DNA of 64,000 bases from a virus. Both the position numbers and the translations under genes were made by a program. Below, in pieces: positions 3,678-55,668 of this stretch. A model generated the notes under the pieces. The model made no database searches. It was not told the DNA's origin and saw only the letters and a program-made list of their open reading frames with translations. Where the stretch lies: IMG/VR virus record IMGVR_UViG_3300044633_000899, positions 23,306-87,305 of that record. The stretch is one strand, 5' to 3'. Each line of letters begins with the position of its first letter. Within the stretch, counting starts at the first letter, position 1.

Positions 3678-3684
3678 TACTGTT

Positions 3685-3990
3685 GGATTAATCAACAACT
3701 TGTTTTTGGACTCCCAAGTATAGAAAAGGAGTTTATCACTTAACTCACGGGTTAGGTGGGGTGATTGAAAAAGATGGGAGATCCCCAAAATACACAGAAA
3801 CGTGGTAATTACCAGCCATCCCATATACGGCTAGATGGGCGTTAAGTCTTTACGAGATAAGGACAGAAAGGACGGGTTAAAAATCACAAATGAGCTCAAA
3901 GTGATGGTTTAAGTAGAAGTAGTTTGGGAAGAAACGAGCCCAGGCTGATAGGAAGATGGAAGACGATTAAGATACTAATATCCTATCCTA
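3685..3990 (+). ncRNA. candidate structured non-coding RNA (unclassified)
   Basis: About 300 nt with no ORF >60 aa on the plus strand; GC content clearly above the flanks; several short stem-loops (tgggg..cccca, cccat..atggg, atcac..gtgat); -7 motif upstream. Confidence 0.35.
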
Positions 3991-3991
3991 C

Positions 3992-4414
3992 TTAAGCAAC
4001 CCAAATTACAACTTGATTATCACCAACTCTAAAAGGATTTGAAGGTGATTCCCTAAATACAGTTGAAATTTCTAATCTCCAGTAAGTACCCCCAATATGT
4101 ATAGGGTTTATCGCTAACGCTAATTCCCGTTCAACTGATTTAACGACAAATGGTTTTTTGTTAAAAATTTCTCTATTAATAATTTTTTCGGCGATATCAC
4201 CCTTAACTAGTGAAATAAGTTCTTTAATTTCTCTATTTTCAATAGGGTTCTGATTATAATCTGTTCCATCAAGTTCTGGTCTTGTAGATCTATCAAAAGC
4301 ATGACTCCTCCTGTCAACTTCAAAATTAAATGAAACCTCAAGATTTGAAACAACTTGTGCTATTTTCTTTTCAAGTATTAAATGTTTTCTAATTGACTCT
4401 CTAAGTAGTGACAT
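3992..4414 (-). CDS. hypothetical protein (140 aa)
   Basis: Minus-strand ORF converging on the ncRNA candidate; no motif recognised. Confidence 0.5.
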   Translation of the reverse strand: MSLLRESIRKHLILEKKIAQVVSNLEVSFNFEVDRRSHAFDRSTRPELDGTDYNQNPIENREIKELISLVKGDIAEKIINREIFNKKPFVVKSVERELALAINPIHIGGTYWRLEISTVFRESPSNPFRVGDNQVVIWVA

Positions 4415-4462: not shown

Positions 4463-5548
4463 ATGAAAGAAAAATTTTTACCTTGGTTTATGTTAGTGTG
4501 TGCGTTAGGTCTATCTGGTACCGCAGCATACTATAGTGTTATTGGATTATCCGTTGTGTTTATTAGTGTTGCAACACCAGTTATTATTATGGGATCATTC
4601 CTTGAGATCTCAAAAATCGCAATTGCGACCTATTTACACGACAAATGGAATGAAACATACGGAATGTTAAAGTTCTATATGACAACTGCCTTAATTACAT
4701 TATCAATAATTACATCAATTGGTATTTACGGACTTTTGAGTACTGGATTCCAGGGAAATATTGCCAAAATGGAAATCAATGAAAAACGAATTAAAAATAT
4801 TGAGGTTAAGAAGAATCGGTTTATAGAAATAAAAGATGAATTAATTGATGAGAAAACAATATTAAATGGTGATATAACAAAATTGAGAGATGGACTATCA
4901 AATAATACAACGACACAAACAGTTGACAGAAAAACAGGACAATTAATAACCAAGGCCAACGAGGGTAATAGGAAATCTTTTGAAACTCAATTACAACAAG
5001 CACAAGTCAGACGAGACGATATTTCAAAAAAGATTGACAATTGTAACGACAGTATTACCAATTTGGATGTTCAAATCTTAGATATGGAATCAGCAGAAAT
5101 TGAAGGTAGTGAACTTGGGGCTATAAAATACATTGGAGAAATATTAGATTGGGATATAAAAAAAGTTGCCAACTTATTTATATTGATATTAATTTTTGTT
5201 TTTGATCCGTTAGCGATAACATTAGTGATTGCAACAAATCAATTGTTTAAATCAAACAAGAAAAAGAATCCGACAACACAAAAAATTGAGACGGATAATA
5301 CCAAAATAGAAACAGAAAAAATTTGGGAAAAGGCAAACCAATTACGAGAAGAAGGTAAATTAGAACCACCAACCACAGAAGACATTATTAATGAACCAAC
5401 GGCTTTGGCCAATTCACAATACCGAAATGAATATAATATAGAACGGGAACCATTAAATCTGAACCAAGAGATAAATTGGGTTCAGACAAGTGAAGAAAAT
5501 AATGGTGAGGTTAATCAAAACATAAAAAGATTGATATATAAGAAATAA
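4463..5548 (+). CDS. membrane protein with three N-terminal TM helices and a long coiled-coil
   Basis: Hydrophobic N-terminus (FMLVCALGLSGTAAYYSVIGLSVVFISVATPVIIMGSF...), K/E-rich heptad-like middle, second hydrophobic stretch (LFILILIFVFDPLAITLVIA). Confidence 0.6.
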   Translation: MKEKFLPWFMLVCALGLSGTAAYYSVIGLSVVFISVATPVIIMGSFLEISKIAIATYLHDKWNETYGMLKFYMTTALITLSIITSIGIYGLLSTGFQGNIAKMEINEKRIKNIEVKKNRFIEIKDELIDEKTILNGDITKLRDGLSNNTTTQTVDRKTGQLITKANEGNRKSFETQLQQAQVRRDDISKKIDNCNDSITNLDVQILDMESAEIEGSELGAIKYIGEILDWDIKKVANLFILILIFVFDPLAITLVIATNQLFKSNKKKNPTTQKIETDNTKIETEKIWEKANQLREEGKLEPPTTEDIINEPTALANSQYRNEYNIEREPLNLNQEINWVQTSEENNGEVNQNIKRLIYKK

Positions 5549-6144
5549 TGACAAAAATTATTAAGTATGGAAAATTTGTTGGTCTTGGTATTAATGAAAA
5601 TAAACGACAAATTGTTTTAATTCATTCTGGTAGACCAAGTGATGAATATTTAACATCACTTAAATATCGTCTGAATGGTAATTACGAAAAAATACCTAAT
5701 TATTTTATAGATAAAGATGGTAAGATTTTACAATTATTACCAAAGGAGGAAACCTCAAAAAACTTTAATATTAGTGTTGTTGATAAGAACGCAATTGTTA
5801 TTTGTTTGGAAAATTTGGGTTGGTTAGAAAAAGAACCATTAAAAAATGGTTACATTAACTGGATTGGTAATATTTATAAAGGTAAGGTGTACGAAAAAAA
5901 ATGGAGAGACTACATTTTTTGGGATCCTTACACTGAAGAACAAACTAATTCAACGTTATTCTTGTGTAAGAAACTAATCGCACAAATGAATATTGACAAT
6001 AAGTTTGTTGGACATAACACTAAAATTAACGGTGCTGAAAAATTTTTTGGAGTACTAACAAGAAGTAATTTCTTTATGGAAACAACAGATTTAAATCCAT
6101 CGTTTAATTTTGAATATTTTTTAAAAAAAATTGAAGATGAATAG
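5548..6144 (+). CDS. putative N-acetylmuramoyl-L-alanine amidase (Amidase_2/PGRP-like)
   Basis: Blocks resembling T7-lysozyme-type amidases: QIVLIHSGR, YFIDKDGKIL, AIVICLENLGW, YTEEQTNSTLFLCKKLIAQ. Confidence 0.45.
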   Translation: MTKIIKYGKFVGLGINENKRQIVLIHSGRPSDEYLTSLKYRLNGNYEKIPNYFIDKDGKILQLLPKEETSKNFNISVVDKNAIVICLENLGWLEKEPLKNGYINWIGNIYKGKVYEKKWRDYIFWDPYTEEQTNSTLFLCKKLIAQMNIDNKFVGHNTKINGAEKFFGVLTRSNFFMETTDLNPSFNFEYFLKKIEDE

Positions 6145-7069: not shown

Positions 7070-7480
7070 ATGAAAAACACACTTATTCTTTTTTTTATAT
7101 TATTAACCAATATTTCTTTTGGTCAAATAATTGAATCTGACACAACAACACTATTAATACCAGTTAATGTTGGAAAATCTATTTTGGTTGACTTGAATGA
7201 TTTAGAGCGATTGAAAAAACAAGAAGTGACGTATAAAAATGAAATACAACAACTAGAAAACAAAGTATTTAAAAACGAAAAGATAATAACTAGTTTAGAG
7301 GATAAGGATAAAAAAAACAATGAGATAATTGAATTAAAGGATTCAAAGTATAAATTAGTTGACGAGGAAAACAAACAATTACGTGATGATATTAAAAAAA
7401 TCAAAACTAAGAATGTAATTATTGAAATTGTTGGTGGATCAATTATAGCCGCATTAACTTATATTATAACCTTTAAATGA
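7070..7480 (+). CDS. exported coiled-coil protein (signal peptide, C-terminal TM)
   Basis: N-terminus MKNTLILFFILLTNISFGQ, K/E coiled-coil, C-terminal IVGGSIIAALTYIITF. Confidence 0.5.
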   Translation: MKNTLILFFILLTNISFGQIIESDTTTLLIPVNVGKSILVDLNDLERLKKQEVTYKNEIQQLENKVFKNEKIITSLEDKDKKNNEIIELKDSKYKLVDEENKQLRDDIKKIKTKNVIIEIVGGSIIAALTYIITFK

Positions 7481-8574
7481 TGGAAGACACTATTAAACAA
7501 GATATAACACAAATGGTTAACAGTTTAACGGCAGGAAATAATGACGCCAGAGTTGCTGCAAACAAATCCTTGAATGAAGATGGTAATGAAAGAAATCCTG
7601 AAGACTATTTAGTTGAACCCAACGATATGGTTATTATTTTAAATCTAGTTAAAAATAAAAAACTATCTGCGAATAAAATAAAACAAAAAATTAGAGAGTA
7701 TCTTAAAGATCCTAACACACTAAAAAGTTTCTTAAAATCAATAATTGACAGTAGAGGTAAAAAAGAAACAAAAGAAATGACTGGTACATCTTCAGCTGGG
7801 GGATATTCAGAACCGTTATTCACGAAAATGGAAACAAAAGAAGCGACAGGTTCATCCTCATCTGGTTCATATGAAACACCAAAGATATGGGCTAAAAGTA
7901 CGAATAAAAAAGACTGGAGAGGTAAATCAAAACCACAAATACCTGGTGGTAAGTTTGTTCAGGTTAAGAAAAAATGTAAAAAGTTTCCATATTGTAATCA
8001 AGGTGATATTAACGCCCTTAATATTTTTGAAGATAAAATGTTGATAAATGCGGTAAATAAGGTTTCGCAAAAATTTGGTATAAATAAAGATATAATCAAA
8101 GAAATAATTGAAGTTGAGATTAGTAATACAACAACCGAAAATCAATACAAACTAATTAAAGAAAATATTTCTTTAAAAGAAAAATTAAGGAACCTAATCA
8201 AAAAGATTGGTTTTGAATCTGTAACAAAGATTGTTGGATCTTTGGATAAAACTTTTGAAATCTTTGATATTAAAGAACCGATGGATTTCTTAAACTTGTT
8301 TAACGATCTGGATGTTGTTCAGAGTGAAGACCTTGACTCTTGGACGTTATATCGTTATAAAAAAGGTCATAATTTTATTGTTTACGATAGAGAAAGTGAT
8401 GAGATTTATATTAATTATTATGAAATTTGGTCGGTTTTGGAAGACAAATTTGGTCTTAAATACTCTGAAATACAGGAACTTACAAAGATATGGTTGGATG
8501 AGGTCTACAATTTAAGGGGTGTCACATCATTGATAATTGGTGTTGATGACAGTTGTATGAGGTCTACAATTTAA
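7477..8574 (+). CDS. repeat-associated family protein A (about 220-aa unique N-terminal part + conserved ~130-aa module)
   Basis: C-terminal 140 aa about 75% identical to ORFs 26575-26997, 53750-54148 and 55672-56121; contains internal TENQYKLIKENISLKEKL; the last codons are encoded by the 36-nt repeat. Confidence 0.7.
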   Translation: MMEDTIKQDITQMVNSLTAGNNDARVAANKSLNEDGNERNPEDYLVEPNDMVIILNLVKNKKLSANKIKQKIREYLKDPNTLKSFLKSIIDSRGKKETKEMTGTSSAGGYSEPLFTKMETKEATGSSSSGSYETPKIWAKSTNKKDWRGKSKPQIPGGKFVQVKKKCKKFPYCNQGDINALNIFEDKMLINAVNKVSQKFGINKDIIKEIIEVEISNTTTENQYKLIKENISLKEKLRNLIKKIGFESVTKIVGSLDKTFEIFDIKEPMDFLNLFNDLDVVQSEDLDSWTLYRYKKGHNFIVYDRESDEIYINYYEIWSVLEDKFGLKYSEIQELTKIWLDEVYNLRGVTSLIIGVDDSCMRSTI

Positions 8575-10472: not shown

Positions 10473-10649
10473 ATGGAAACTTTAGAAAAAATAAAAGCGT
10501 TAGTTGAGACACTTTCTGACGAATCAACAAAATTTTATGAAAAAAATAATAAATCAGCAGGAACTAGAGCAAGAACTGCAGCACAAGAATTAAGAGAACT
10601 ATTAAAAACGTTTAGAGGTGAAATTTTAGAGGCTAGAAAGAATGGTTAA
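10473..10649 (+). CDS. small basic protein (58 aa, below the track cutoff)
   Basis: ATG 10473 to TAA 10649: METLEKIKALVETLSDESTKFYEKNNKSAGTRARTAAQELRELLKTFRGEILEARKNG. Confidence 0.35.
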   Translation: METLEKIKALVETLSDESTKFYEKNNKSAGTRARTAAQELRELLKTFRGEILEARKNG

Positions 10650-12437: not shown

Positions 12438-13373
12438 ATGAATACTGACAATTATTACACTATTTTAGGCGTCTCAGAAGACGCAACACAAGATGATATA
12501 AAAAAAGCGTATAGAAAGTTAGCGAAAGAAAATCATCCAGATAAAGGTGGTGATGAGGAAATTTTTAAAAACATATCAATTGCTTACGACGCTATTGGTA
12601 ATGAGGAAAGTCGTAAGAAATACGATTTTGAACGAAAAAACCCTTTCAGTGGAATTAAAGGTCAATATGGTGAAGCGTTCAGATCTGCCTTTAGAAATAT
12701 GCACAGAGGTCACGAATCACAAGAACATAGAGTCCACACAAAAACAATCACAATTGATATTACAGTGTTAGATTCTTTCCTATCAAAAGAAAAACAATTT
12801 GAGTTTAATCGGAAAATTAAATGTGAACCTTGTGGTGGTAAAGGTGGTGAAAGACAAACTTGTCAAATATGTTCAGGACAAGGGCAGGTCATACAACAGA
12901 TGGGTAGTGGTATGTTTATACAAATTGTTTCTATGATGTGTAACAATTGCTCTGGACGAGGTTATACGTTGGTAAATAAATGTAACGAATGTTTAGGAAA
13001 TGGTACAAAAAATGAAGCAAAAAAAGTTGAGGTAAAAATACCACACGGTATTGATAATGGGCAATTTTTAAGAATGAAAGGTGTTGGTGATTTTAATGAA
13101 GGTTTGTATGGTGATTTAATAATTAAGGTTAATTTACAAAATGAAAACGACTTTGATAAGTACGACAATAATTTAGTATATAACAAATACTTTAATATTA
13201 ATGATTTTAATGAAGAATCTTTTGAAGTACCACACCCTGACGGAACAATGAAAGTCAATTTTCCAAAAAATATTGACACATCCAAACCATTAAGAGTAAA
13301 AGGTAAGGGATTTAAATATAATGGTGTTGGTGATTTATTTATAAATCAATATTTAAAGTATGAAAAACTTTAA
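12438..13373 (+). CDS. DnaJ-like co-chaperone (J domain + CxxCxGxG zinc-finger region)
   Basis: DYYTILGVSEDATQDDIKKAYRKLAKENHPDKGG (HPD motif); CEPCGGKG, CQICSGQG, CNNCSGRG, CNECLGNG repeats. Confidence 0.85.
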   Translation: MNTDNYYTILGVSEDATQDDIKKAYRKLAKENHPDKGGDEEIFKNISIAYDAIGNEESRKKYDFERKNPFSGIKGQYGEAFRSAFRNMHRGHESQEHRVHTKTITIDITVLDSFLSKEKQFEFNRKIKCEPCGGKGGERQTCQICSGQGQVIQQMGSGMFIQIVSMMCNNCSGRGYTLVNKCNECLGNGTKNEAKKVEVKIPHGIDNGQFLRMKGVGDFNEGLYGDLIIKVNLQNENDFDKYDNNLVYNKYFNINDFNEESFEVPHPDGTMKVNFPKNIDTSKPLRVKGKGFKYNGVGDLFINQYLKYEKL

Positions 13374-16083: not shown

Positions 16084-16112
16084 CCCCCAAATTATTGGGG
16101 GTTTTGTTTTTT
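16084..16112 (+). terminator. intrinsic terminator
   Basis: cccccaaattattggggg hairpin followed by ttttgtttttt. Confidence 0.75.
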
Positions 16113-16695
16113 AATTTAATGGGTTATATGTTTTAATAATTTTTGTTTCTCTATTAAAATGTTTACCATTACCTTTCATTTGGTTATATAATGTTATATC
16201 ATATATTGGTAATTTATCTAATTTACCGAGAGTATTTAAACTGACTAAAATTTCATAATTAACCCCATTTATACTTTTTAATCTCAACACATCTTTATAA
16301 CCTAATTTCTGTAAAGAAATCATTTTCCATATATTATCTATATTTACTTTTACAATATTAATCCCCTCATCAATTTTAGGGTTAACAAAATTAGGATCAC
16401 TTGGGAATGTCTGTTCTCTAAAATTCCTTTCTGAAAAATGAGGATTAATTTTAATATTAAAATAGGCTTTTTTAACTTGATTTGTTTTTTTATCTGTATA
16501 TTGACCTAATAAAGGACTTATTTCTTTAGCTAAAATTTTTTGTGTAATATATGTTTGTTTGATTAACTTTAAAATTTCATCATCTATATGTTCGTAGTTA
16601 GTACCCTCATTCAATGGTTTACGACCAAGGTATTGAATACTCACAATATGATATACAATCTCCTCTCTCAAAATTTTTTTAATAATTTTTTTCAT
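16111..16695 (-). CDS. leader-peptide family protein (N-terminus MKKIIKKILREEI)
   Basis: Shares its N-terminal ~12 aa with ORFs 50020(-), 49065(-), 45564(-) and 20038(+). Confidence 0.6.
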   Translation of the reverse strand: MKKIIKKILREEIVYHIVSIQYLGRKPLNEGTNYEHIDDEILKLIKQTYITQKILAKEISPLLGQYTDKKTNQVKKAYFNIKINPHFSERNFREQTFPSDPNFVNPKIDEGINIVKVNIDNIWKMISLQKLGYKDVLRLKSINGVNYEILVSLNTLGKLDKLPIYDITLYNQMKGNGKHFNRETKIIKTYNPLN

Positions 16696-16766
16696 ATTTA
16701 TATAAATATCTAAAAAAAAGTATTATCTTAGCACAGAATTAGTTATTAACCTATAAAAAAAATAAG

Positions 16767-19753: not shown

Positions 19754-20037
19754 ATTATATAAATATAAAAAAGGTGATAAAATATACTTACCACCTTAAA
19801 TTTTAGTTACCCAAAGGAATTATTTTTTATTGTAGTATTTCTCAACAATTTTTTTAACTGACTCTTGTACACTTGCACTTTTTTGTTCTTGAGTTTGTTT
19901 TACGGTTTGTTCCGCTTGTTGTTGGTTTCCTTTGTTTTTACATCCACATCCCATAATTGATTGATTTTATAGTGTTTATTTATTAATAAATATTGGAATA
20001 TAGATTAATTTGTAAAGAATTATATATTTATTATTGT

Positions 20038-21570
20038 ATGAAAAAGACATTTAAAATAACAGAATCAAAATTAATAACCTTAATTAAGGATATTATTAGA
20101 GAACAAGAAATGGAGGAGGTTGTAATAACACCAGAACAATATTATGACTTAATGAGAAAAGTGTTTTATAAAACAGAAGCAATACCATCATTACCACCTT
20201 TTAAAAATAAAACATTAGTGGTTTCTGGTGATTTAAAATTAACAGACCCAAAAATTAAAAAATTAGGTAAACTTAAAATTTTAGGAAAGTTAGACATTTC
20301 GCGTTCAAATATATCATCATTAGATGGTGTTGAAGTTACTGGTTATGTTAGTGATTGGAATACACCACTATATAATATTAAACAACAAAGAATATTAAAC
20401 GCAAAAATTAGTGAACAAGAAAGTCTTAGAGAAGATGATGAATGGAACTTGAATAATACTGATGAGGTTGGTGAAATGGCACATGCGGCATTTGAATATG
20501 CGAATAATCGTTCTGATATTACTGCGTTAACGGATGACGAACTTGAACGAGTTAATGAAATTAGAAAAACAATACAAGAATTAGAAGAAGAACAGGAAAA
20601 TTTAGACACAGGACTTGAAAATTGGAATGAGTTAGATGATGATATTACAGATCGTATTGGTGAGTTAGAAGATGAACTTAATGAATTAACAGATGATAAA
20701 TCAGATGTTTATGATTTTTACCCGTCTGGTCGTCATTATGATTTACACGAATATGAGTGTTTAACAGAAAATATGAAATTCGCAGTTGGAACAACTGAAG
20801 AGGCTGATAGTTCATTAAGAGTTTATTTTGAAGAATGGATTGACAACCCATTAGAATATCTTGGACCAGATCGTATATCACACTATGTTGATGCCGATAT
20901 GGTTGTAGATGCTTTTGAGGATGGCGAACGAGAGTATATAGAAGAAAACCCCGAAGATTACAATATTAGTAGAGATTTGAGTTATAAACAAGAAGAAGAA
21001 ATTCAAGATTACGAAAAACAAAAATTAGGGTTAGAAGTTGAACGATTTTTAATTGAAAAGGGAGGAAGAACACCATTAATTGAAGATGTGATTGATAGTG
21101 CAAAATATTTTAAATTTAAAGATTATTTGGATAATATTTTTGTTGTTGAGTTTTCAGACAAATGGGAATTATATCAAAATGGGAAAAAAGTTGAAACAAT
21201 AATATATTCTGATGAGGAATTTGAAGAACAAGAAACCGATAATCAAACACGTTTGGATGAGATTGTGAGTGAAATCAGTGATATTGAGTACGAAATAGAA
21301 GAAATAAATGAAAACCCTGACGGTGATTTTAATCAGGATGAAATTTTTGAAAAGGTTGAGTCTATGTTAGAAGATATTAGATACGATCCATATGACTGGT
21401 TAAAGGATAGAGGTTATGAGAATGAGACAATTGTTAAATTTATAGACACAGATGCTATGCTGGATGACCTAGTCCGTGACGCGGATTACGGTTCATTAAA
21501 TGGTTATGATAACTATTACGACGAAGTAAATATTAACGACACATATTATGTTGTTATGAGGATTGATTAA
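20038..21570 (+). CDS. large highly acidic protein with leader-like N-terminus (MKKTFKITESKLITLIKDIIREQE)
   Basis: Start moved to ATG 20038 (track start was an alternative TTG); D/E-rich coiled-coil stretches. Confidence 0.55.
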   Translation: MKKTFKITESKLITLIKDIIREQEMEEVVITPEQYYDLMRKVFYKTEAIPSLPPFKNKTLVVSGDLKLTDPKIKKLGKLKILGKLDISRSNISSLDGVEVTGYVSDWNTPLYNIKQQRILNAKISEQESLREDDEWNLNNTDEVGEMAHAAFEYANNRSDITALTDDELERVNEIRKTIQELEEEQENLDTGLENWNELDDDITDRIGELEDELNELTDDKSDVYDFYPSGRHYDLHEYECLTENMKFAVGTTEEADSSLRVYFEEWIDNPLEYLGPDRISHYVDADMVVDAFEDGEREYIEENPEDYNISRDLSYKQEEEIQDYEKQKLGLEVERFLIEKGGRTPLIEDVIDSAKYFKFKDYLDNIFVVEFSDKWELYQNGKKVETIIYSDEEFEEQETDNQTRLDEIVSEISDIEYEIEEINENPDGDFNQDEIFEKVESMLEDIRYDPYDWLKDRGYENETIVKFIDTDAMLDDLVRDADYGSLNGYDNYYDEVNINDTYYVVMRID

Positions 21571-23663: not shown

Positions 23664-23694
23664 ATGGGTTGTTAATTAAATTTAACAACCCATT
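23664..23694. terminator. bidirectional terminator hairpin between convergent genes
   Basis: aatgggttgttaa-ttaaa-tttaacaacccatt, perfect 13-bp stem. Confidence 0.65.
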
Positions 23695-24514
23695 ATTTTA
23701 ATTTTAAAATTTGACCAGGTTTAAGTTCTGTTGATTTTAAATCGTTTAGTTTAATTATGGAATCAACGGTTACTGATTTGTCATATTTGGAAGCAATTCC
23801 AGATAATGTTTCACCTGGTTTTACAACATATAGTTTAAAGACACTCGGAGAAAGACCACCACCACCAATTTGTGGTTTAGGTTTTTGTGTCTTAGTTTTT
23901 TGTTGTTTAACTTTCGGTTCAACTGGTTTAGATAATTCTTCGGCATATTTTAAGAACGCCCTTTGGTTGTTTTTCATTCGTTCGGCAACAGTTCCTTTTT
24001 TTCTTGGGTCGTCAACATTTGAAAAGTCAATATTCCAACCTTCAAGATATTGTTTAGCACCCAAAGACCAATTATCATCATTTAAACTTTTAACCCATTT
24101 ATAACCACTTTTAACTTCACCACGATATGTCGCATTAACCAATGCTCTTTGAACATACACTGGGTATTTATCAAATTTTGGAAAAACTTTTTTAGCAATC
24201 TCTTCGTGTTTTTTAATATCATCAGTTAATAATTGTTCGGCTTCTCTATTTGATATAATCATACCTGGTTTTACTGATGGTCCGGTATGACCCCACCCAA
24301 TTGTTAACACACCACCATAAGGTGATTTTTTACGAATGAATGTTTTTTTATTGTTTGGTGGTAATTTCGGATCCTTATCATCAAACACGTAATGTTGGTT
24401 CTTACTATTAACAACGGTTGATTCATAACCTTTAATTAAATTCCTAAATTCTGTGTCACTAACAACACTTTCAATTAACATTTTATGTTGATTTTCAGTT
24501 ATTACGATTTTCAT
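23693..24514 (-). CDS. lysozyme (GH24-like) with C-terminal LysM domain and leader-like N-terminus
   Basis: GGVLTIGWGHTG...PVYVQRALVNATYRG (T4-lysozyme-like core); LysM LSGIASKYDKSVTVDSIIKLNDL..GQILKL; start set at MKIVITENQHKMLIE (ATG 24514). Confidence 0.6.
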   Translation of the reverse strand: MKIVITENQHKMLIESVVSDTEFRNLIKGYESTVVNSKNQHYVFDDKDPKLPPNNKKTFIRKKSPYGGVLTIGWGHTGPSVKPGMIISNREAEQLLTDDIKKHEEIAKKVFPKFDKYPVYVQRALVNATYRGEVKSGYKWVKSLNDDNWSLGAKQYLEGWNIDFSNVDDPRKKGTVAERMKNNQRAFLKYAEELSKPVEPKVKQQKTKTQKPKPQIGGGGLSPSVFKLYVVKPGETLSGIASKYDKSVTVDSIIKLNDLKSTELKPGQILKLK

Positions 24515-24549
24515 AATGATAAATAGTTGTGTAATTAAAAAAAAATATC

Positions 24550-26997: not shown

Positions 26998-27073
26998 GGG
27001 GAGTCATACCAACACCCCCTTCCAACTTTTAGTAAACATTGGATGATATCAACAATTTAATATATTTATTTTT
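26907..27073 (+). CRISPR. CRISPR-like mini-array B: 36-nt repeat x2 plus a degenerate third copy, spacers 32 and 27 nt
   Basis: Repeats at 26907-26942 and 26975-27010 (1 mismatch), degenerate copy about 27038-27073 (attggatgatatcaacaatttaa). Confidence 0.4.
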
Positions 27074-27526
27074 ATGAAGATCATAATAACCGAAGAACAA
27101 TATAACCTACTACAAGATATTGATGATGGGTTAATAACCTACTCAAGTATATTTAAACCTAAGATTAAGATTTTAGTTATATTTAAAAATAATGAAAATT
27201 ACGAAAATCTTATAACGATATTCAATGAGTATGGTTATGGTTTTTATGTACCAAACCAAGAATTAATAATTATTAATGGTGAAATATTTTTAAATTCTAA
27301 CGATTTAACAATGGACGATTTAAGGTTTATTGAGGCTCACGAAATTAGTCACTTACTTTTAAATCACGATGGACCAAGATCCGAGAAAGACGAAATGGAT
27401 GCCGACATAGGTGCGTACATATTATTAACAAGACATAATATTTCAACAGAACGATTAGTGGATGAATTTGAATTTAGACATAATGTTAAATTTGATGAAA
27501 AACTAACTAAAAATTTTGATATTTAA
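27074..27526 (+). CDS. ImmA/IrrE-like HExxH metallopeptidase with leader-like N-terminus (MKIIITEEQYNLL)
   Basis: FIEAHEISHLLLNHDG closely matches the ImmA/IrrE (COG2856) zinc-peptidase motif. Confidence 0.55.
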   Translation: MKIIITEEQYNLLQDIDDGLITYSSIFKPKIKILVIFKNNENYENLITIFNEYGYGFYVPNQELIIINGEIFLNSNDLTMDDLRFIEAHEISHLLLNHDGPRSEKDEMDADIGAYILLTRHNISTERLVDEFEFRHNVKFDEKLTKNFDI

Positions 27527-44827: not shown

Positions 44828-45562
44828 ATGAATTACGGAAAAGAATTTAAAAGTTTTGCAAAGAGCGAAGGAATTTCATCATTAACGATGGATTATTATC
44901 AAAAACATATTGAGAACTCATTGACACCATACATTTTGGAAGAACGTGAATTACGAGCAACACAGATGGATATTTTCTCAAGATTAATCTTGGATAGGAT
45001 TGTTTGGGCATCAGGTACCGTTGATTCAAAAATGGGAGACATTATACAAGCACAATTAATATTTTTGGACACAACAGATAAAAAGGACATTAATTTATAT
45101 CTTAACACTGGTGGTGGATCCGTTATGGTTGGATTGGGAATTCGTGATGTAATGAATTATATTAATTCGGATGTTGCAACGACAAACCTCGGAATGTGTG
45201 CGTCAATGGGATCAATATTATTATCATCTGGGACAAAGGGAAAACGAAGTTCGTTATTATCATCCAAAGTTATGACACACTTTGTTAGTCACGGAACAAG
45301 TGGTAACATACAAGATACAAGAATTAATCAATTAGAGGCCGAAAAATACAATTATATGTTATTTAAAATTTTGGCCGAAAACTCTGGAAAAACTTTTGAT
45401 GAAATATATGAATTGTCTAGACGAGACTGTTGGTTTAACTCAGATGAATCAAAAGAGATTGGTTTAATTGACAATATTATTGGTCTTGAAAAAGATAAGT
45501 CAATAACCAATTATTTGGAAGGATTTGAAGAATATTACGCTAAAGAAGTTTTTAAATCTTAA
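44828..45562 (+). CDS. ClpP-family (S14) serine peptidase, possibly a prohead maturation protease
   Basis: NTGGGSVMVGLGIRDVMNYI and GMCASMGSILLSSG (catalytic Ser context), His in MTHFVSHG. Confidence 0.55.
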   Translation: MNYGKEFKSFAKSEGISSLTMDYYQKHIENSLTPYILEERELRATQMDIFSRLILDRIVWASGTVDSKMGDIIQAQLIFLDTTDKKDINLYLNTGGGSVMVGLGIRDVMNYINSDVATTNLGMCASMGSILLSSGTKGKRSSLLSSKVMTHFVSHGTSGNIQDTRINQLEAEKYNYMLFKILAENSGKTFDEIYELSRRDCWFNSDESKEIGLIDNIIGLEKDKSITNYLEGFEEYYAKEVFKS

Positions 45563-45563
45563 A

Positions 45564-45944
45564 TTATTTGTTTTTGATGATTATATCAGATATTAGGTCG
45601 TAATACATATCCGCGACAACATCTTCATCCATATCTTCATCTTTAACTTCGTTAAAACCAATTGCGTATAATAGGTTAATAATATCAAAATAATAGAATG
45701 GTAAATCAACAACACTAGGTAGCCCTTGAAGCCATTCTATTATTGCTTTTTTCTCACCCATTCTGTTAATCGCCCAACCGTACTCACTTTGGAATATATT
45801 ATATAACGAACCAAATTTATCACTTGAATTTTCGTATTCATCATAACCAGTTAAATCAATACCTTCTTCAACAAAGGACTCCAATTCTTCAAAAGGTGTT
45901 TTTTCAATATATTCCAATAATATTCTTTTTATAATTTTTTTCAT
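45564..45944 (-). CDS. leader-peptide family protein (MKKIIKRILLEYIE)
   Basis: N-terminal motif shared with 16111(-) and 50020(-); acidic. Confidence 0.5.
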   Translation of the reverse strand: MKKIIKRILLEYIEKTPFEELESFVEEGIDLTGYDEYENSSDKFGSLYNIFQSEYGWAINRMGEKKAIIEWLQGLPSVVDLPFYYFDIINLLYAIGFNEVKDEDMDEDVVADMYYDLISDIIIKNK

Positions 45945-45955
45945 ATCAATAAATA

Positions 45956-46777
45956 TTATCCAACTAACAAATTGTGATATTTTTTAAACTTTTCTAATCT
46001 ATCGTCAATACCATTTTCACCACCATTGATACGTTTAGTAAGTTTTTTAACAACCTCATCTGTTGAACCAAGATCACATATTGACCAAAGTTTGTTTGAC
46101 TCAAAGAAAAACCCAGCGGAAGCCAAAGGGTATTTTGTTGCAACAAGATCTGGATTAGCAACACAATCTTCACCAATAAAGTCAGAAAATTTTTTATAAT
46201 TGGACTTACCGGTCGCTTGTAGGTAACCTCGCCCACGAAATTTATATCCCTCTTTAGATACTTCATCTCCGTTATCCATACGGTTAGCATAAACCCTTGA
46301 CGCAATCTTTTCTGGTTGTTTAGCATATGATTCAGCCAAGTTACCAGGAAAGTATTTACCAAACGTTCTTTTTAATCCGTCAACAGAATAATTTAAATTT
46401 TCTGATACTACTTTAAAATTACCTGACTCGTGGGCACATTGTGATAAAAAGTGAGCAAGTCTGAGATTTGTTGTGATATTAAATTTATTAGCGGCTTCTG
46501 GTATTTGGTTTAATACAACATCAGGGATATGACCCTTTAGTTTCTCAATGTTTAGTCCTGTTACTGGTTTGATTACTACATCTTCTTTAATTACAATCGG
46601 AAACATTTTGTTCCACGTTATACTACCAACAACACCGTCATCTTTTAGTCCGTTTTCTTTTTGCCAAGACTTAATAGCACTTTCAGTTTTTGAACCAAAA
46701 CTACCGTCAGCAACTAGTCCTAATTTTTTTTGGATTTTTTTTACATCATCACCTTTTGAACCAATTTTAATTTCCAT
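45956..46777 (-). CDS. endolysin: N-terminal peptidoglycan-binding domain + GH19 lysozyme/chitinase-like domain
   Basis: PG_binding_1-like GSKGDDVKKIQKKLGLVADGSFGSKTESAIKSWQK; GH19 signatures LAHFLSQCAHESGNF and GRGYLQATGKSNY. Confidence 0.75.
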   Translation of the reverse strand: MEIKIGSKGDDVKKIQKKLGLVADGSFGSKTESAIKSWQKENGLKDDGVVGSITWNKMFPIVIKEDVVIKPVTGLNIEKLKGHIPDVVLNQIPEAANKFNITTNLRLAHFLSQCAHESGNFKVVSENLNYSVDGLKRTFGKYFPGNLAESYAKQPEKIASRVYANRMDNGDEVSKEGYKFRGRGYLQATGKSNYKKFSDFIGEDCVANPDLVATKYPLASAGFFFESNKLWSICDLGSTDEVVKKLTKRINGGENGIDDRLEKFKKYHNLLVG

Positions 46778-49064: not shown

Positions 49065-50051
49065 CTACCAAGTAACATTACAACCAGACATAGGTAAACC
49101 ACTTTTATTACCAAAATCAATAACAAAACTACTAATAGTGTTCTCAATATAGTCTCTAAATTCAAAAGATTCTTCGAAATCATCAAATGGTGATTGTGTA
49201 CTACTAAATCTAAGAGGTTCATCGTTTTCATCATAAACAACACCTTCGGTCACTGTTGCGTCAACGTAACAATATATTTTACCATCTTCATCATCAAAAC
49301 GGATAGAATCTATAGTAAACCTAAGTTTACCTTCAAACCAATCATCAGAAAAATCATTTTCAGTGAAAACTTGATCCTCAAGTAATTCTTTAATAATTTG
49401 TGCGCGACTATTGATATCACTATATTCGGCATAAAACTCCATAATATTTTTTAGTTTTGATTTTAAACCCATTCTTTTAATATCATTATAATTTAATTTA
49501 ACTTCTAAACCACTTTCTTTTTGTTTATCCCAAAGATTAAATAAGAACACTTTAAAAGGGTCATTATTTGTCTCAACAATTCTATTTTTTTTACGTAAAG
49601 TTTTTGACTCGTAATATTGATTAAATTTGTTTAACATTTTATAATATTGTTGTAACAAATCGTACCTATCAAATTTATTTGATAACCAGTTTTCACCATT
49701 TCTATATTCGTTATTTTGGTCATCAAAAGTTATAAAGTTATTTGGGTTGTTACCATATAAACGATAAATAGCAAAAGCATTACTACCAAGTTTTTCTTTT
49801 ATTTCTTTATTTCTAATTACGATATAACCTAAAACGCCCAATTTTATATGTTTATTAAAATCTTTATCACAATCTCGTTTTGTTGTACACCATTTTGTGT
49901 CGGATCCATATTTTCTTGAAGCACTATGTGTTAACGGAATTGTTAATATAAAGTCATCGTCACGATACAACTCAACGGATTCGTCGGTTGAAACTTTATG
50001 TACTTCTTTTAAAATTTTTTTAATAATCGTCTTCATCATCAAATTCTTCAA
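49065..50051 (-). CDS. leader-peptide + WCT-motif domain protein
   Basis: MKTIIKKILKE N-terminus; SRKYGSDTKWCTTKRD block shared with 24948 and 13635. Confidence 0.55.
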   Translation of the reverse strand: MKNLMMKTIIKKILKEVHKVSTDESVELYRDDDFILTIPLTHSASRKYGSDTKWCTTKRDCDKDFNKHIKLGVLGYIVIRNKEIKEKLGSNAFAIYRLYGNNPNNFITFDDQNNEYRNGENWLSNKFDRYDLLQQYYKMLNKFNQYYESKTLRKKNRIVETNNDPFKVFLFNLWDKQKESGLEVKLNYNDIKRMGLKSKLKNIMEFYAEYSDINSRAQIIKELLEDQVFTENDFSDDWFEGKLRFTIDSIRFDDEDGKIYCYVDATVTEGVVYDENDEPLRFSSTQSPFDDFEESFEFRDYIENTISSFVIDFGNKSGLPMSGCNVTW

Positions 50052-50655
50052 TATCGTAAGTGTAATTTTGTTGAAACTCTATAATCCATATTGTGTCAAA
50101 ATATTTATTTAATTGTTCGTCAGTTAAATCAACAATTGGTATATTTTCACCATCAATATACGCCATAGTACGACCAACAGATTTAAACCATTCAATTTTT
50201 TGTTCTCTATTGTAATTCGGTATCTTTTTTTGAATTTCAGATTTACATAAACCACCTTTAAAATTATAAGGTGCAACACGATCAACATCAGTTAATGAAA
50301 GTTTTGAACGACTATTAAAATCATCAAGATATGTCTCTTCAATGTAATCACCTATCATTTCAGTAACTAAACCCTTTCTAATTTTAAAATACTTACTAAC
50401 CTCATTGATTATTTTATCATCTATTAATATTTCAACATCTTTATCGGTACCCATAAATAGACCAATTTCTTTACCATTAGAACAAAATTCAACACGATAG
50501 TCACCGTATGTTTGATCTTCAGTATAATGGTCTAAAGTATATCTCTTAAACACTAAGTTAATATACTTCATAATTATTGAATATAACTCTGGTGTTACTT
50601 TATTATAACGTTTTTTTATTTCTTCCCTTAAAATTTTTTTAATAATTGATCGCAT
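50020..50655 (-). CDS. leader-peptide family protein (MRSIIKKILREEIKK)
   Basis: N-terminal motif; overlaps the downstream gene by 32 nt. Confidence 0.55.
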   Translation of the reverse strand: MRSIIKKILREEIKKRYNKVTPELYSIIMKYINLVFKRYTLDHYTEDQTYGDYRVEFCSNGKEIGLFMGTDKDVEILIDDKIINEVSKYFKIRKGLVTEMIGDYIEETYLDDFNSRSKLSLTDVDRVAPYNFKGGLCKSEIQKKIPNYNREQKIEWFKSVGRTMAYIDGENIPIVDLTDEQLNKYFDTIWIIEFQQNYTYDIEEFDDEDDY

Positions 50656-50692
50656 ATTTTTATAAATAGTGGTATTATTTGTAAATTTTTAT

Positions 50693-50711: not shown

Positions 50712-51065
50712 ATGGCACATCCATTAATTCATGCAAAAAGTTCTGTCAAGAAAAATGGTGGTAAAATAGAAGATTATATTGATATCCATAATTGGTTTGA
50801 TGAAACTAAAGCCTGGGTTGGTAATAGTACTCACAGAATGTTTAGACATCATTCTGAGGGGATTTTTGAGTGTGAGAGAATATTTGGAACGTCTTTTGAA
50901 AATAGTGACGGGAAAACCGTTTATACTAGGTATATTGGAGAACAACACGTTAAAGAGGATTGCTTCAACTATATCCCAACGGCTAAAGAATGGATTATAG
51001 CGTTGGAATCAAAAGAAAAACCATTATGGATGATACGAACTTTGGAGTTAAAATTTGACGATTAG
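50712..51065 (+). CDS. hypothetical protein (117 aa)
   Basis: ORF. Confidence 0.5.
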   Translation: MAHPLIHAKSSVKKNGGKIEDYIDIHNWFDETKAWVGNSTHRMFRHHSEGIFECERIFGTSFENSDGKTVYTRYIGEQHVKEDCFNYIPTAKEWIIALESKEKPLWMIRTLELKFDD

Positions 51066-52413: not shown

Positions 52414-53257
52414 TGATCAAATAATTAGTGAAGTTAGAAACGAGTCAATGTTAAATAAAAAACAAGATCGTATAATAACGATTGATGACACAATAATTAA
52501 AAAATACATCAATATTAACGTATATGGTTACGATAATGATTATAATAATTTAAATATTGATTATATCTCCAAACATAGAGGTTTTCCAAATTTAATTAAT
52601 AGGTTATTATATGAGGTTTATGTTGATTATTTAAATGATAATGAAGATAAAACAATGACTGGTATTGTAGGTATTTTTACACCAAATGAATATACCAATT
52701 GGTCAATACTTAATTATTTTGGTGGACATAAATTTGTTAAAGACATTTTAATCCAGGAGTTTAAAAACGATAAAACAACACAAAAAACGCCAAAAGAATT
52801 TTACCGTTGGTTAATAACCAATAAGAGTATGTTGTTTGGTGAAAAATCACAGATTTTAAAAAAGTTGGTTAGAACAAACCTAAATACTTTTAATAAAGGA
52901 ACAAAAACGGAATTATTTTTAACAAAAGTACTTAAAGAATCTGGATTTGATGTTAAGTACTTTCCGCCAGGTTCAACATATGATAGAAAATATGGTATTG
53001 ATTTAATTATAAATAACACCTCATACCAAATTAAAGAATTAGTTGGGATTGAGGAATTAAATGATGGGTATTATTTAAAAACACCATTACCTAAAGAATA
53101 TAAAAACCTTAATGTTAAACGAATAATGTTAGTTGATATCAATAATGGTGAGTTTGTATCGTTTCCGAATAAAGATTATGTTGTTAGTCAGAAAGATAAT
53201 GCTTTTATTGTTGATAAATCTACTAAACTAAAAGTTGGAAATATATTTAAACTATGA
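52406..53257 (+). CDS. hypothetical protein (283 aa)
   Basis: ORF. Confidence 0.5.
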   Translation: MNNDQIISEVRNESMLNKKQDRIITIDDTIIKKYININVYGYDNDYNNLNIDYISKHRGFPNLINRLLYEVYVDYLNDNEDKTMTGIVGIFTPNEYTNWSILNYFGGHKFVKDILIQEFKNDKTTQKTPKEFYRWLITNKSMLFGEKSQILKKLVRTNLNTFNKGTKTELFLTKVLKESGFDVKYFPPGSTYDRKYGIDLIINNTSYQIKELVGIEELNDGYYLKTPLPKEYKNLNVKRIMLVDINNGEFVSFPNKDYVVSQKDNAFIVDKSTKLKVGNIFKL

Positions 53258-53760
53258 AAATAATTATAACCGAAAGCCAATATAAATTCTTAACTGAAAA
53301 TTTTGATTCTGTTTTGGATATATACTCAAAGAAAAATAAAGGTGAAACATTAAAACCTTCCGAATTGGATGTGTTAAAAGTTTTTAATGATTATGTAAAA
53401 AAAGGTGGCACACCAGAAGAATTTGTTTTTAATCAAGACGATGTTTATGGATTTGATGAGAGAGAAGGTATGTTATTTAATTATAATCTAAAAGGTCGGC
53501 CATTACAATTTGAGTTCACTGAAGAAACTGAAACCGAAAATGATATTGACTATTTTGGTGAAATAACATTTGATGGTGATGAATACCTCGGCGTTATTGT
53601 AACGGATAAAAATGGTTATTTAATTGATTATGATTTTTACTCAACGTTAACAAAAGGTGATGTTAGATTACAGGAATTATTAATTGTTGATAATAGTGAT
53701 GCAGAATTTAGAAATTTTTTACAAGAAATGGTTATTAACGTTTTAATAAATGAAAAATAA
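53254..53760 (+). CDS. leader-peptide family protein (MKIIITESQYKFL)
   Basis: N-terminal motif shared with 27074 and 55672. Confidence 0.5.
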   Translation: MKIIITESQYKFLTENFDSVLDIYSKKNKGETLKPSELDVLKVFNDYVKKGGTPEEFVFNQDDVYGFDEREGMLFNYNLKGRPLQFEFTEETETENDIDYFGEITFDGDEYLGVIVTDKNGYLIDYDFYSTLTKGDVRLQELLIVDNSDAEFRNFLQEMVINVLINEK

Positions 53761-54148
53761 TTTAAAAGAAAAATTAAAGGACTTAATCAAAAAGGTTGGT
53801 TTTGAATCAACGATAAGAGTTGTCGGATCCTTGGATAAAACTTTTGAAATTTTTGACATTAAAAAGCCAATGGATTTCTTAAATTTATTTAATGACCTAG
53901 AATCAGTTCAGAGTGAAGAACGTCAAGAGTGGACATTGTATAGATATAAAAAGGGACATAATTTAATGGTTTACAATAGAGAAAATGATTATGTTTATAT
54001 CAATTATGATGAAATTTGGTCAGTTTTGGGAGATAAATTCGGTCTTAACTACTCTGAAATACAGGATCTTACAAAGAGATGGTTGGATGAGGTCTACAAT
54101 TTAAGGGGAGTCACACCTAACGAAGTATACTATTACGTTTGGTGCTAG
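53750..54148 (+). CDS. repeat-associated family protein C
   Basis: MKNNLKEKLKDLIKKVGFESTIRVVGSLDKTFEIFD...WLDEVYNLRGVTP then spacer-encoded NEVYYYVWC stop. Confidence 0.7.
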   Translation: MKNNLKEKLKDLIKKVGFESTIRVVGSLDKTFEIFDIKKPMDFLNLFNDLESVQSEERQEWTLYRYKKGHNLMVYNRENDYVYINYDEIWSVLGDKFGLNYSEIQDLTKRWLDEVYNLRGVTPNEVYYYVWC

Positions 54149-54231: not shown

Positions 54232-55668
54232 GTGAAAATTTTATTAAACGAGAAACAATTCAAAAATATTGTAGTTCTATTATCTGAAGATGACGATAAA
54301 AAAATAAACGTAATGTTTGTTGGTGACAGCCATAGTGATGGCCAAGGGTACACCTGGAATTATGATTTAGAGAAACAACATCCAGAATGGAATGTAACAC
54401 ATATTGTAAAAGGTGGTAAAACAACAGAGTGGATGTTAGAAAATATGTTACCAGAATTATCAAAAAAACATTATGATTTAGTTTTCATATTAGGTGGTAC
54501 AAATGATGTTATGTCACCATTACCAATAGAGACACCAATCAACAATATTCAAAAAATGGTTAATGCAGTCAACACCCAAGGTGGAAAAGCAATTGTTGTT
54601 ATCGGATTTGATAGTGAATCTATTATGGATGTAAATAAATTACGAACAACGAAATATTGTGACAAAGAATGTTTAAAAAAGTTTAAACCAAAAAGAGTTG
54701 AATTCCAACGTAAATTAGAAAGTTCAATCCAAAACGCAACAATAGTACCACCACTTGTTGGTGATTACACTTGGGCAAATGATGGTATACACGTCGGCGG
54801 ATCAAAACACAAACTATTATCAAGTACCGTTGAAAATTATATAACAAAAGGTGAGGTTAAAAACCAAAAAAAATCACTAATTAATCAACTATTAGACAAG
54901 TATACAGAAGTAATCCAAAACAAAAGTACAATTGACGCAATAAGTCCAAGAAAAGAGATTAAATTATTACAAATACTTTTTTCAATTGCTGAAGGTCAAA
55001 AGAACAGAAATTTTTCTGGTACATTAGATTCTGACACCATTACTAGACTTAAAAAATATCAAACAACTAATAATTTACCGAATACAGGTATTTTTGATTA
55101 TCAAACAATTTATAGTATAAACAACAAGATAAGCCCAAAATTAAATAAAGTTTTAAAACCAGAAATGGCAAAAGAAACAATATCAGATCCTGGATCCTCA
55201 ATTGTTAGTACGAGTAAATTAGTTAATGATTTAAAATCATTTGGTTTAACTGAAAATGCTGCAAAAGGTTTGACAGCAAACGCATATGGTGAAAGTGGTT
55301 TAAATTATAAAGCGAAAGGTGATTCGGGTTCCTATGCGAAGAACACTACAAAATCAATTGATATTGGTGGTAAAAAATATTGTTCATTTGGTTTATGGCA
55401 ATTTAATGTGTGTGGTGGGTTAGGTATTGAGTTTTTAAAAAAATACAATACACTTAACAGTGGTAATACGGATAAAATAGAAACTCTGTTTGATTATAAT
55501 AAACAATTAGAGATTATGGGTTCTAAGATAATGAAAGAACAATCTAAAGGTGATAAGAGTGTTAAAACTTGGATTGACTGGATTGTTGATAATGTTGAAC
55601 GACCTGCTGACAAATCTGGTGCAAAACAAAAACGACAAAATTTTGCTAAACAACAAGGTTGGATATAA
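54232..55668 (+). CDS. three-domain cell-wall hydrolase: SGNH/GDSL esterase + PG-binding domain + phage tail-lysozyme-like domain
   Basis: VMFVGDSHSDG and ILGGTNDV (SGNH blocks I and III); LDSDTITRLKKYQTTNNLPNTGIFDYQT (PG_binding_1-like); C-terminal GLWQFN-containing domain. Confidence 0.55.
   Translation: MKILLNEKQFKNIVVLLSEDDDKKINVMFVGDSHSDGQGYTWNYDLEKQHPEWNVTHIVKGGKTTEWMLENMLPELSKKHYDLVFILGGTNDVMSPLPIETPINNIQKMVNAVNTQGGKAIVVIGFDSESIMDVNKLRTTKYCDKECLKKFKPKRVEFQRKLESSIQNATIVPPLVGDYTWANDGIHVGGSKHKLLSSTVENYITKGEVKNQKKSLINQLLDKYTEVIQNKSTIDAISPRKEIKLLQILFSIAEGQKNRNFSGTLDSDTITRLKKYQTTNNLPNTGIFDYQTIYSINNKISPKLNKVLKPEMAKETISDPGSSIVSTSKLVNDLKSFGLTENAAKGLTANAYGESGLNYKAKGDSGSYAKNTTKSIDIGGKKYCSFGLWQFNVCGGLGIEFLKKYNTLNSGNTDKIETLFDYNKQLEIMGSKIMKEQSKGDKSVKTWIDWIVDNVERPADKSGAKQKRQNFAKQQGWI

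Follow-up and report, generated by a model that had tools for sequence, protein, structure and literature searches.

A short N-terminal leader peptide recurs on unrelated proteins encoded in a 64,000-nucleotide stretch of viral DNA (IMG/VR record IMGVR_UViG_3300044633_000899, positions 23,306 to 87,305), which we call the window. The leader system to which it belongs is real and widespread, and we regard it as a known principle, that of the capsid-targeting sequence (CTS) of phage T4, in a new form. An original prediction, made from the letters alone, had proposed a leader shared by about ten proteins and had likened it to a T4-type CTS; the shared leader was borne out and proved larger than claimed, with eight robust copies, two weak or degenerate ones and one internal remnant in the window. 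Chance is excluded as an explanation of this recurrence. The leader is N-terminal, modular, swappable between classes and selected as a peptide. As to its role, we lean, with somewhat better than even confidence, towards CTS-like head-targeting propeptides that would be removed by a gp21-type protease and would mark proteins packaged in the head and ejected from it.

Leader copies in the window

Circularity was avoided because the hidden Markov model (HMM) profiles of the leaders were built from IMG/VR sequences of other contigs only, none of them from the window. Two of these profiles correspond to the two motifs that had been proposed, here leader A (typified by MKKIIKKILREE) and leader B (MKIIITExQYK and its variants). 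In a six-frame scan of the window, profile B matched at 53254, 55672, 27074 and 24514(-), and profile A at 16695(-), 50655(-) and 50036(-), with independent E-values (i-E) from 1e-10 to 0.02; every one of these gene matches begins exactly at the initiator Met, and the remnant at 8134 was the sole other match above noise. A composite profile spanning both motifs, seeded with six sequences from outside the window, reached gene 20038 at E = 3e-8 in its fourth iteration and at 7.5e-7 at convergence, where it also collected the four B genes of the window, against 0-1 matches on reversed controls. The leaders at 45944 and 54232 are visible by eye, degenerate, and not significant with these profiles. 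All the N-termini listed in the original prediction are present where it had placed them, one gene boundary excepted: the gene given as 49065-50051 starts at ATG 50036, not at TTG 50051. The copies, together with the leaderless paralogues of one family, are as follows.

16111..16695 (-): the focal gene, 194 aa; leader A MKKIIKKILREE encoded at 16660-16695; basic (pI 9.5) alpha/beta domain with no assigned function
16702..16708 (-): TATTTAT element of the focal gene, 6 nt upstream of its ATG
50020..50655 (-): leader A gene, 211 aa, acidic; MRSIIKKILREE at 50620-50655; 17.9 bits; TATTTAT 50662-50668
49065..50036 (-): leader A variant MKTIIKKILKE (MKTIIKKILKEV) at 50004-50036; 323 aa; 9.6 bits, i-E 0.019
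45564..45944 (-): degenerate A-like leader MKKIIKRILLE (MKKIIKRILLEY); 126 aa, pI 4.2; TATTTAT 45949-45955
20038..21570 (+): full composite leader MKKTFKITESKLITLIKDIIREQ (N-terminus MKKTFKITESKLITLIKDIIREQE) at 20038-20106; 510 aa, acidic; TATTTAT 20025-20031
27074..27526 (+): leader B MKIIITEEQYNLLQDI (N-terminus MKIIITEEQYNLL) at 27074-27121; HExxH zincin; 21 bits; TATTTAT 27063-27069
53254..53760 (+): leader B MKIIITESQYKFLTEN (N-terminus MKIIITESQYKFL) at 53254-53301; 168 aa, pI 4.2; 35.6 bits
55672..56121 (+): leader B MKIIITENQYKLIKEN (N-terminus MKIIITENQYKLI) at 55672-55719; 149 aa, VGSLDKTFEIFD family; 30.5 bits
23693..24514 (-): leader B MKIVITENQHKMLIES (N-terminus MKIVITENQHKML) at 24467-24514; GH24 lysozyme + LysM; 17 bits; TATTTAT 24519-24525
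54232..55668 (+): weak B-like start VKILLNEKQFKNIV, GTG start codon; GDSL hydrolase + PG_binding_1 + tail lysozyme
8134..8574 (+): internal VGSLDKTFEIFD-family copy with truncated leader ..TENQYKLIKENIS, inside the open reading frame (ORF) 7477-8574; 13.6 bits
26554..26997 (+): leaderless VGSLDKTFEIFD-family paralogue, start ..MEDKIKEKLKDLIKNVGF
53750..54148 (+): second leaderless VGSLDKTFEIFD-family paralogue, start MKNNLKEKLKDLIKKVGF..

The leaderless paralogues of the VGSLDKTFEIFD family show that the leader is an optional add-on. Gene 49065..50036 is the next one downstream of the 50655 gene on the minus strand and overlaps it; a homologue of its cargo found elsewhere carries a B leader. 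As for the cargo that had been announced, the lysozyme at 23693-24514(-) is indeed a GH24 enzyme with LysM, the peptidase at 27074 has its HExxH motif (HEISH) at residue 89 with a borderline match to Peptidase_M78, and several proteins are acidic (pI 4.1-4.8). The 'WCT-domain proteins' of the same list dissolve into a single WCT tripeptide in one protein, where no Pfam domain is found, and are not a real category.

The internal copy that had been noticed in 7477-8574 is confirmed as a truncated leader. The ORF appears to be an in-frame fusion of an unrelated 215-aa N-terminal part with a VGSLDKTFEIFD-family copy whose leader lacks MKIII (..TTTENQYKLIKENIS..); the same 365-aa ORF is also called on two independent contigs (L142 and L143).

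A composite module conserved as a peptide

Both of the proposed motifs are real, but instead of two distinct signals they represent halves or variants of a single composite module of about 23 aa, MKKIIRLTESDLTRIVKRVIKEQ, present in full in gene 20038. An example noticed among the 'control' N-termini, MKKIIRLTESDLTRIVRRVIKEQ, displays the arrangement, leader B resembling its first half and leader A its second. The link between A and the composite is made through the orthologues of a '..YMFFSNLEQ..' family, in whose alignment leader A (MRNLDRIIKKVLREEE) stands against the second half of the composite (MKRIVKLTEQDLVKIVKKIVNEK), and not through profile A, which does not formally reach the composite set. 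There is also a third class, MNLQESIRRILKEE / MNLQENIDRIKEMMGLIxE.

Synonymous codons vary between the leader copies of the window. In a comparison of 33 carrier families, independent of one another, the codons for T6, E7, Q9, Y10 and K11 are used as in the genomic background; AAA invariably occupies codon 2, the Ile codons are enriched in ATA (69% vs 36% in the background), and codons 2-5 have an additional A-rich bias. We can therefore understand the leader as conserved at the level of the peptide, with an A-rich start bias superimposed. Leader A stands at a variable distance from the Met (MKK.., MRNLDR.., MMKRN..), the conservation of leader B fades near residue 16, and the leader is kept in orthologues down to 59% identity. 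In AlphaFold2 (AF2) models it is a low-confidence appendage on two different cargoes, one of which is the lysozyme 23693-24514.

A promoter-like element

The heptamer TATTTAT is found 9-20 nt upstream of 6 of the 10 leader genes and of 5 of the 105 other genes of the window (Fisher p = 3e-5). It is also present upstream of gp21, the prohead protease gene, in 53 of 60 distinct upstream regions; the major capsid protein (MCP) gene, which lies downstream of gp21 in the same direction, has an A-rich upstream region only. In the Flavobacterium phage immuto the genes that it precedes are those for terminase, portal, tail fibre and 'virion structural protein'; of eight non-structural genes considered upstream of that module, none has it. 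This gene context leads us to read it as a putative late or structural promoter. The stretches from the element to the ATG in the window are as follows.

16696-16708
20025-20037
24515-24525
27063-27073
45945-45955
50656-50668

No more than 4-6 nt separate the element from the ATG in these six genes. This implies late mRNAs with hardly any 5' leader or none at all, in hosts of a group that makes no use of Shine-Dalgarno sequences.

Spread and cargo

About 2.6 Mb of related contigs were surveyed, and the census counted 394 ORFs with a leader, whose cargo forms 156 unrelated clusters; 11 of these include homologues with different leader classes. The back-translated MKIIITExQYK pattern matched at least 114 viral contig stretches, on contigs of 4 to 322 kb with a G+C content of 0.27-0.34, and the IIKKILREE pattern 20. 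Trimming of the leader leaves at least 33 unrelated clusters of B carriers. At convergence the composite profile retained 345 N-terminal candidates, and composite leaders are also found on contigs, selected by their MCP, that are binned with gut and rumen Bacteroidales metagenome-assembled genomes.

Most carriers have no function assigned by PHROG and Pfam. Those that are annotated comprise a GH24 lysozyme with LysM, an M23 peptidase with PG_binding_1, a SleB-like hydrolase with PG_binding_1, a GDSL hydrolase with PG_binding_1 and tail lysozyme, a DHH phosphoesterase and several HExxH zincins; one more has a weak RNase-like fold match. The search for lysozyme homologues cannot estimate the leaderless fraction, because it seeds on shared words and those of the leader are among them.

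The window holds five cell-wall-hydrolase genes within 64 kb, two of them with a leader: 5548-6144 (Amidase_2), 23693-24514 (GH24 + LysM), 45956-46777 (PG_binding + GH19), 46817-47425 (phrog_3000, with a weaker endolysin-family match) and 54232-55668 (GDSL + PG_binding + tail lysozyme). The GH19 enzyme, which has no leader, matches endolysin families. On another contig a 432-aa ORF downstream of the MCP (L205:7702-8997) starts with an A-type leader and contains a complete composite leader inside, near residue 340 (..MTSYKPRKKTNENMKTIRLTESELVRIVKKILNEE..); its second part is a separate gene in other contigs, and we are dealing either with a gene fusion or with a polyprotein cut by the head protease.

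A T4-like lineage and its head module

The leader-bearing lineage is a T4-like, uncultured lineage of phages of Bacteroidota. Searches with T4 proteins (phmmer) found homologues of gp18, gp20, gp21 and gp23 on many leader-bearing contigs; the MCP is 28% identical to T4 gp23, and the prohead protease (L039:6609-7334 is an example) is of the gp21 type (PF03420), with H85, S140 and D168 invariant. Precomputed Pfam matches give the order of the head module as Terminase_6N, Portal_T4, further genes, Peptidase_S77, DUF4494, an acidic ORF of about 500 aa in the scaffold position, and Gp23; proteins of 238 aa and 155 aa are also conserved in the module. On contigs L039, L117, L042, L030, L037, L094 and L264 the 55672 (VGSLDKTFEIFD) family contributes one or two leader-B genes to the interval between portal and protease, which in T4 is occupied by the core genes gp67 and gp68. 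Even the closest cultured relatives are remote, the MCP of Flavobacterium phage vB_FspM_immuto being 43% identical over its C-terminal 40%; this phage has the same head-module synteny and TATTTATA elements, and N-termini related to the leaders, namely MKKSQIVKAVQEVLEE, encoded between portal and protease, and GIITESQFNEEL.

Several circumstantial threads link the window to these head modules. Window proteins recur with identical sequence on the 187-kb NCBI contig JBFDRA010000416.1 (GCA_043538635.1), and contigs of JGI metagenome 3300042384 carry them as well; from this same metagenome comes L264 (the same contig as L030), and the gp21 of L264 is also found on one NCBI-sourced contig, as window proteins are. 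Two window genes, 3992-4414 (47-57% identity) and 50712-51065 (74%), are common with MCP-selected head-module contigs.

In the marine sub-lineage the portal gene (gp20) is longer than in sister lineages, 987-1031 aa vs about 600-640 aa.

L039:1772-4735: long portal gene
L117:1989-5084: long portal gene
L264:5101-8196: long portal gene, with a precomputed Intein_splicing Pfam match, so that this portal appears to contain an intein

Freshwater sister lineages have, between portal and protease but transcribed from the other strand, a gene for ribosomal protein S21, at about the position that the leader-B gene takes in the marine lineage.

L250:9244-9429: S21 gene
L256:9236-9421: S21 gene (present likewise in L251-L263)

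The L/I-x-E motif and the candidate protease

Each leader has an invariant tripeptide, I-T-E in leader B, L-T-E in the composite and L-R-E in leader A. In all 105 clusters of leader-bearing lysozyme homologues a [LIVM]xE motif places its Glu at residue 15 or 16, including six leaders that lack E7, and the residue that follows is mostly A, S or G; substitutions in this family are conservative (Y, F, L or H at position 10, I, V or L elsewhere). Among the independent B families, 25 of 33 have an [LI]xE site, vs 20% of control N-termini.

The T4 CTS, MKTYQEFIAE, is removed by gp21 (PMC8442874) and targets unrelated internal proteins (PMC8442874, PMC3012670, PMC9026906), its targeting determinants lying in the N-terminal part and its processing determinants at the end (PMC9026906). 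A CTS serves all the internal head proteins of T4, and the cuts in Alt fall at ITE-6 and LTE-619 (PMC5694885); N-terminal losses are 10 residues in gp24, 9 in gp21 and 65 in gp23 (PMC9958956). When mapped on the T4 sequences, these losses fall at LRE-10 in gp24 (MAKINELLRE|S), LIE-9 in gp21 and LTE-65 in gp23. The ITE, LTE and LRE of the leaders are thus all found among mapped T4 gp21 sites, and the MCP of the lineage reads FLINE|AT where T4 has FLTE|AE. The site at E15/16 of leader B and the LRE of leader A would probably be obligatory cleavage sites.

The natural processing enzyme would be the gp21/Peptidase_S77 homologue, which holds the protease role in the head modules of the lineage. The ClpP encoded at 44828-45562, earlier put forward for this task, is unlikely to perform it: it is a canonical Clp protease (PF00574, 1e-46), and its neighbours, outside any head module, are small ORFs without annotation, a leader gene and a gene resembling GH19 endolysins.

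Proposed mechanism and alternatives

A CTS-like role of the leaders would unfold as follows. Late in infection, genes placed behind TATTTAT would be expressed together with the head-assembly genes. The leader, of about 12-23 aa, consists of a short hydrophobic stretch, [IL]-T-E, and then what would be an amphipathic basic helix ending in [LI]-x-E, and it would dock its cargo on the scaffolding core of the prohead, around which the shell would then close. The gp21-type prohead protease (Peptidase S77/U9) would cut after the Glu of [LI]-x-E, with L13-x-E15/16 of leader B and L-R-E of leader A as main sites and I-T-E7 or L-T-E9 as an extra one, and the mature cargo would stay in the head, to be ejected with the DNA. 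Core binding, cleavage, head retention and ejection are all steps that we infer. The likeness to a T4-type CTS gains considerable indirect support from the T4-like lineage, the gp21-family protease, the head-module position, the promoter-like element common with the protease gene and the tripeptides of gp21 sites; it fails in homology to the T4 CTS itself.

A number of observations weigh against this role. Direct comparison of MKTYQEFIAE with the leaders gave no significant similarity, only a pattern (M-K, an aromatic residue, [LI]xE). The protein in the scaffold position is weakly enriched in [LI]xE, with z from 1.0 to 2.6 vs 5.0 for T4 gp22, and 80 sister loci of the head module lack leader B. 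Acidic cargoes are numerous, in contrast to the basic internal proteins of T4, and several cargoes have cell-wall-binding domains (LysM, PG_binding_1) that are unusual inside a myovirus head. No head or structural genes were found in the 64 kb of the window; ORFs from 82 kb of the T4 genome compared with it gave Dam methylase as sole match; and megablast and tblastn of the window and of the carrier proteins against deposited phages returned no match, so that no close cultured relative is known. The case for a gp21-family protease in the window's own genome is circumstantial.

Cell-wall hydrolases that have LysM or PG_binding domains are characteristic of tails and baseplates, and leader genes also lie on contigs with tail-sheath genes, so that one may think of an uncleaved docking or assembly tag for a late partner other than the head core (tail or baseplate, chaperone, membrane complex), in which [LI]-x-E would merely be part of an amphipathic helix; AT-rich proteomes are indeed rich in [LI]xE (1.7% per position; 20-31% of control N-termini). 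We consider such a tag improbable, though worth keeping in mind: against it stand a Glu at 15 or 16 in 105 of 105 lysozyme-family leaders, followed by a small residue, tripeptides that match mapped gp21 sites, and a leader gene between portal and protease. A more radical view denies the peptide any function and sees a signal in the nucleic acid, either a start convention of near-leaderless late mRNAs in a Bacteroidota host devoid of Shine-Dalgarno sequences, or a recombining cassette of promoter and 5' end. The 4-6 nt between TATTTAT and ATG, implying very short 5' untranslated regions, the constant AAA at codon 2, the excess of ATA and the lack of visible Shine-Dalgarno sequences in the window all go in this direction. 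Yet the synonymous codons for T, E, Q, Y and K11 occur at background frequencies, substitutions are conservative at the peptide level, conservation reaches residues 16-23, the offset of leader A from the Met varies, several leader genes lack the promoter element and most late genes lack the leader, all of which makes this view quite unlikely.

Two further roles have little to recommend them. One class of N-terminal signals for E. coli ClpX consists of Met, a basic residue and three hydrophobic ones, which recalls MKIII, and the window encodes both a canonical ClpP and DnaJ; the leader might accordingly be a degron, used by the phage ClpP and a host unfoldase for timed degradation that limits toxic late proteins. 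A degron, however, leaves the head-module position, the conserved [LI]xE and the match to gp21 sites unexplained; we hold it to be rather less probable still. Least probable of all, and indeed very improbable, is an export or membrane-targeting signal that would bring cell-wall hydrolases to the periplasm, even if peptidoglycan hydrolases with domains that bind the wall make up five or more of the carrier types: in the charged, amphipathic leader no hydrophobic core exceeds 3-4 residues, the real lipoprotein or transmembrane starts of the window look different (for example MKKLFLTILMGIMVTSC at 30218), and most cargo is not related to the wall (DHH phosphoesterase, zincins, a weak RNase-like fold, acidic proteins). 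Sec, lipoprotein and signal-arrest-release (SAR) signal peptides were rejected on reading the sequences, as MKIIITESQYK and MKKIIKKILREE do not provide a hydrophobic core of some seven residues or more.

Comparison with known systems

The closest parallel to a CTS-like leader is T4 itself, where the CTS of internal proteins IPI-III and the gp21-removed propeptides of Alt, gp24 and gp21 are likewise short N-terminal peptides on unrelated proteins. Here too the peptide occupies the extreme N-terminus of unrelated proteins of one phage, starting at the initiator Met in the eight robust and two weak copies; as judged from sequence it ends, as in T4, in the gp21 motif L/I-x-E, and its tripeptides ITE, LTE and LRE are identical to Alt ITE-6 and LTE-619 and gp24 LRE-10. 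Both belong to phages of the gp20/gp21/gp23 type, a gp21-family protease with its catalytic residues being present in the head module of the leader-bearing relatives, and both serve variable cargo loci, here behind a promoter-like element of structural genes. The leaders differ in being longer (12-23 aa), in forming at least three swappable classes and in having a far larger cargo repertoire (156 clusters sampled), with acidic proteins and several classes of cell-wall hydrolases where T4 has small basic internal proteins; their hosts are Bacteroidota. Since they do not align with the T4 CTS, they are an analogue or a very distant variant of it, not a member by sequence.

In the giant phages phiKZ, 201phi2-1 and SPN3US, head and ejection proteins carry N-terminal propeptides cut after Glu by a gp21-related S80 protease, often at several sites, and the N-terminal 15 residues of SPN3US gp53 and gp54 are identical. 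There the sites are A/S/G-x-E, not L/I-x-E, and the leaders are common to paralogues only, whereas here the protease is PF03420 (T4 type) and the families are more than 100 and unrelated. Encapsulin cargo-loading peptides provide another case of a short terminal peptide sufficient to load diverse cargo into an HK97-fold shell; they bind the shell directly and are not removed, no protease, DNA packaging or ejection is involved, and their sequence is unrelated. Finally, the MIX proteins of type VI secretion (T6SS), the LXG proteins of type VII secretion (T7SS) and contact-dependent inhibition (CDI) systems also join a conserved N-terminal address module to a variable C-terminal enzymatic cargo of hydrolases, peptidases or nuclease-like folds and swap these modules from locus to locus, but the vehicle here would be a phage head, and the address is about 20 aa long and probably cleaved.

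In two huge phages of 634-642 kb, LR745206 and LR756502, homologues of the DHH phosphoesterase start with MISKYNQFINEE / MLRKYGQFINEE. Their Y-x-x-F-I-x-E spacing equals that of the T4 CTS, and CTS-like N-termini may therefore exist in huge phages.

L137:19995-21983: DHH-phosphoesterase homologue of a huge phage
L138:19992-22265: DHH-phosphoesterase homologue of a huge phage

Meaning of the leader system

A search of the literature on the motif string and on CTS-like leaders outside the T-even phages found no earlier description. If the CTS-like role is correct, the injected proteins of a large uncultured phage lineage would be predictable from their N-termini alone, and the carriers would make a catalogue of candidate effectors of host takeover, anti-defence and wall penetration, because most of the cargo is functional dark matter. 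What the T4 CTS already offers for E. coli, a short and ready-made packaging tag for foreign proteins, would also become available for phages of Bacteroidota, those of gut and rumen Bacteroidales among them, and the CTS principle would be ancient and widespread in gp21-type phages, rather than a T-even peculiarity.

A bolder proposal, which we put forward tentatively and do not expect to be the likelier outcome, is that the leaders form an interchangeable address code of at least three classes, and that the heads of this lineage are effector-delivery devices with the breadth of polymorphic toxins. More than 150 unrelated cargo families, including at least four cell-wall hydrolase classes, zincin peptidases and RNase-like folds, would then be loaded and injected by a globally distributed uncultured lineage. 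The leader classes might specify different sub-capsid locations or an order of ejection.

Other features of the window

The window is an accessory region, densely coding, with 27-32% G+C; it has Bacteroidota-type TAnnTTTG promoter-like sites, no Shine-Dalgarno sequences, no tRNAs and no Rfam matches. It encodes a sigma-70 factor, three tandem C5 methylases, DnaJ, ClpP, thioredoxin, glutaredoxin, an SPFH protein, an RNA ligase, a Dam methylase and the five cell-wall hydrolases described above.

The three tandem C5 DNA-methyltransferase paralogues (PF00145; 1043-3641) have near-identical N-termini (MNVLSLFDG[LM]S.GQIALNR), and the second and third genes have near-identical upstream sequences (cacatatatttaaaaatat.gaaat). 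At 3680-3990, downstream of a Bacteroidota-type TACATTTG promoter-like site, comes a gap of about 300 nt, judged non-coding, with a G+C content above that of its surroundings. Neither a tRNA nor, even at E <= 1, an Rfam match was found there, and the fold z-score is only -1.3; the gap is conserved in part in contigs L105 and L121, and is possibly a novel RNA or the remnant of one.

Four genes of the window may bear on the physiology of the host.

44828-45562: canonical ClpP
12438-13373: full-length DnaJ
14-676: sigma-70-type factor
10473-10649: Hc1-like histone-like protein

Taken together, they suggest an extensive remodelling of host proteostasis and transcription.

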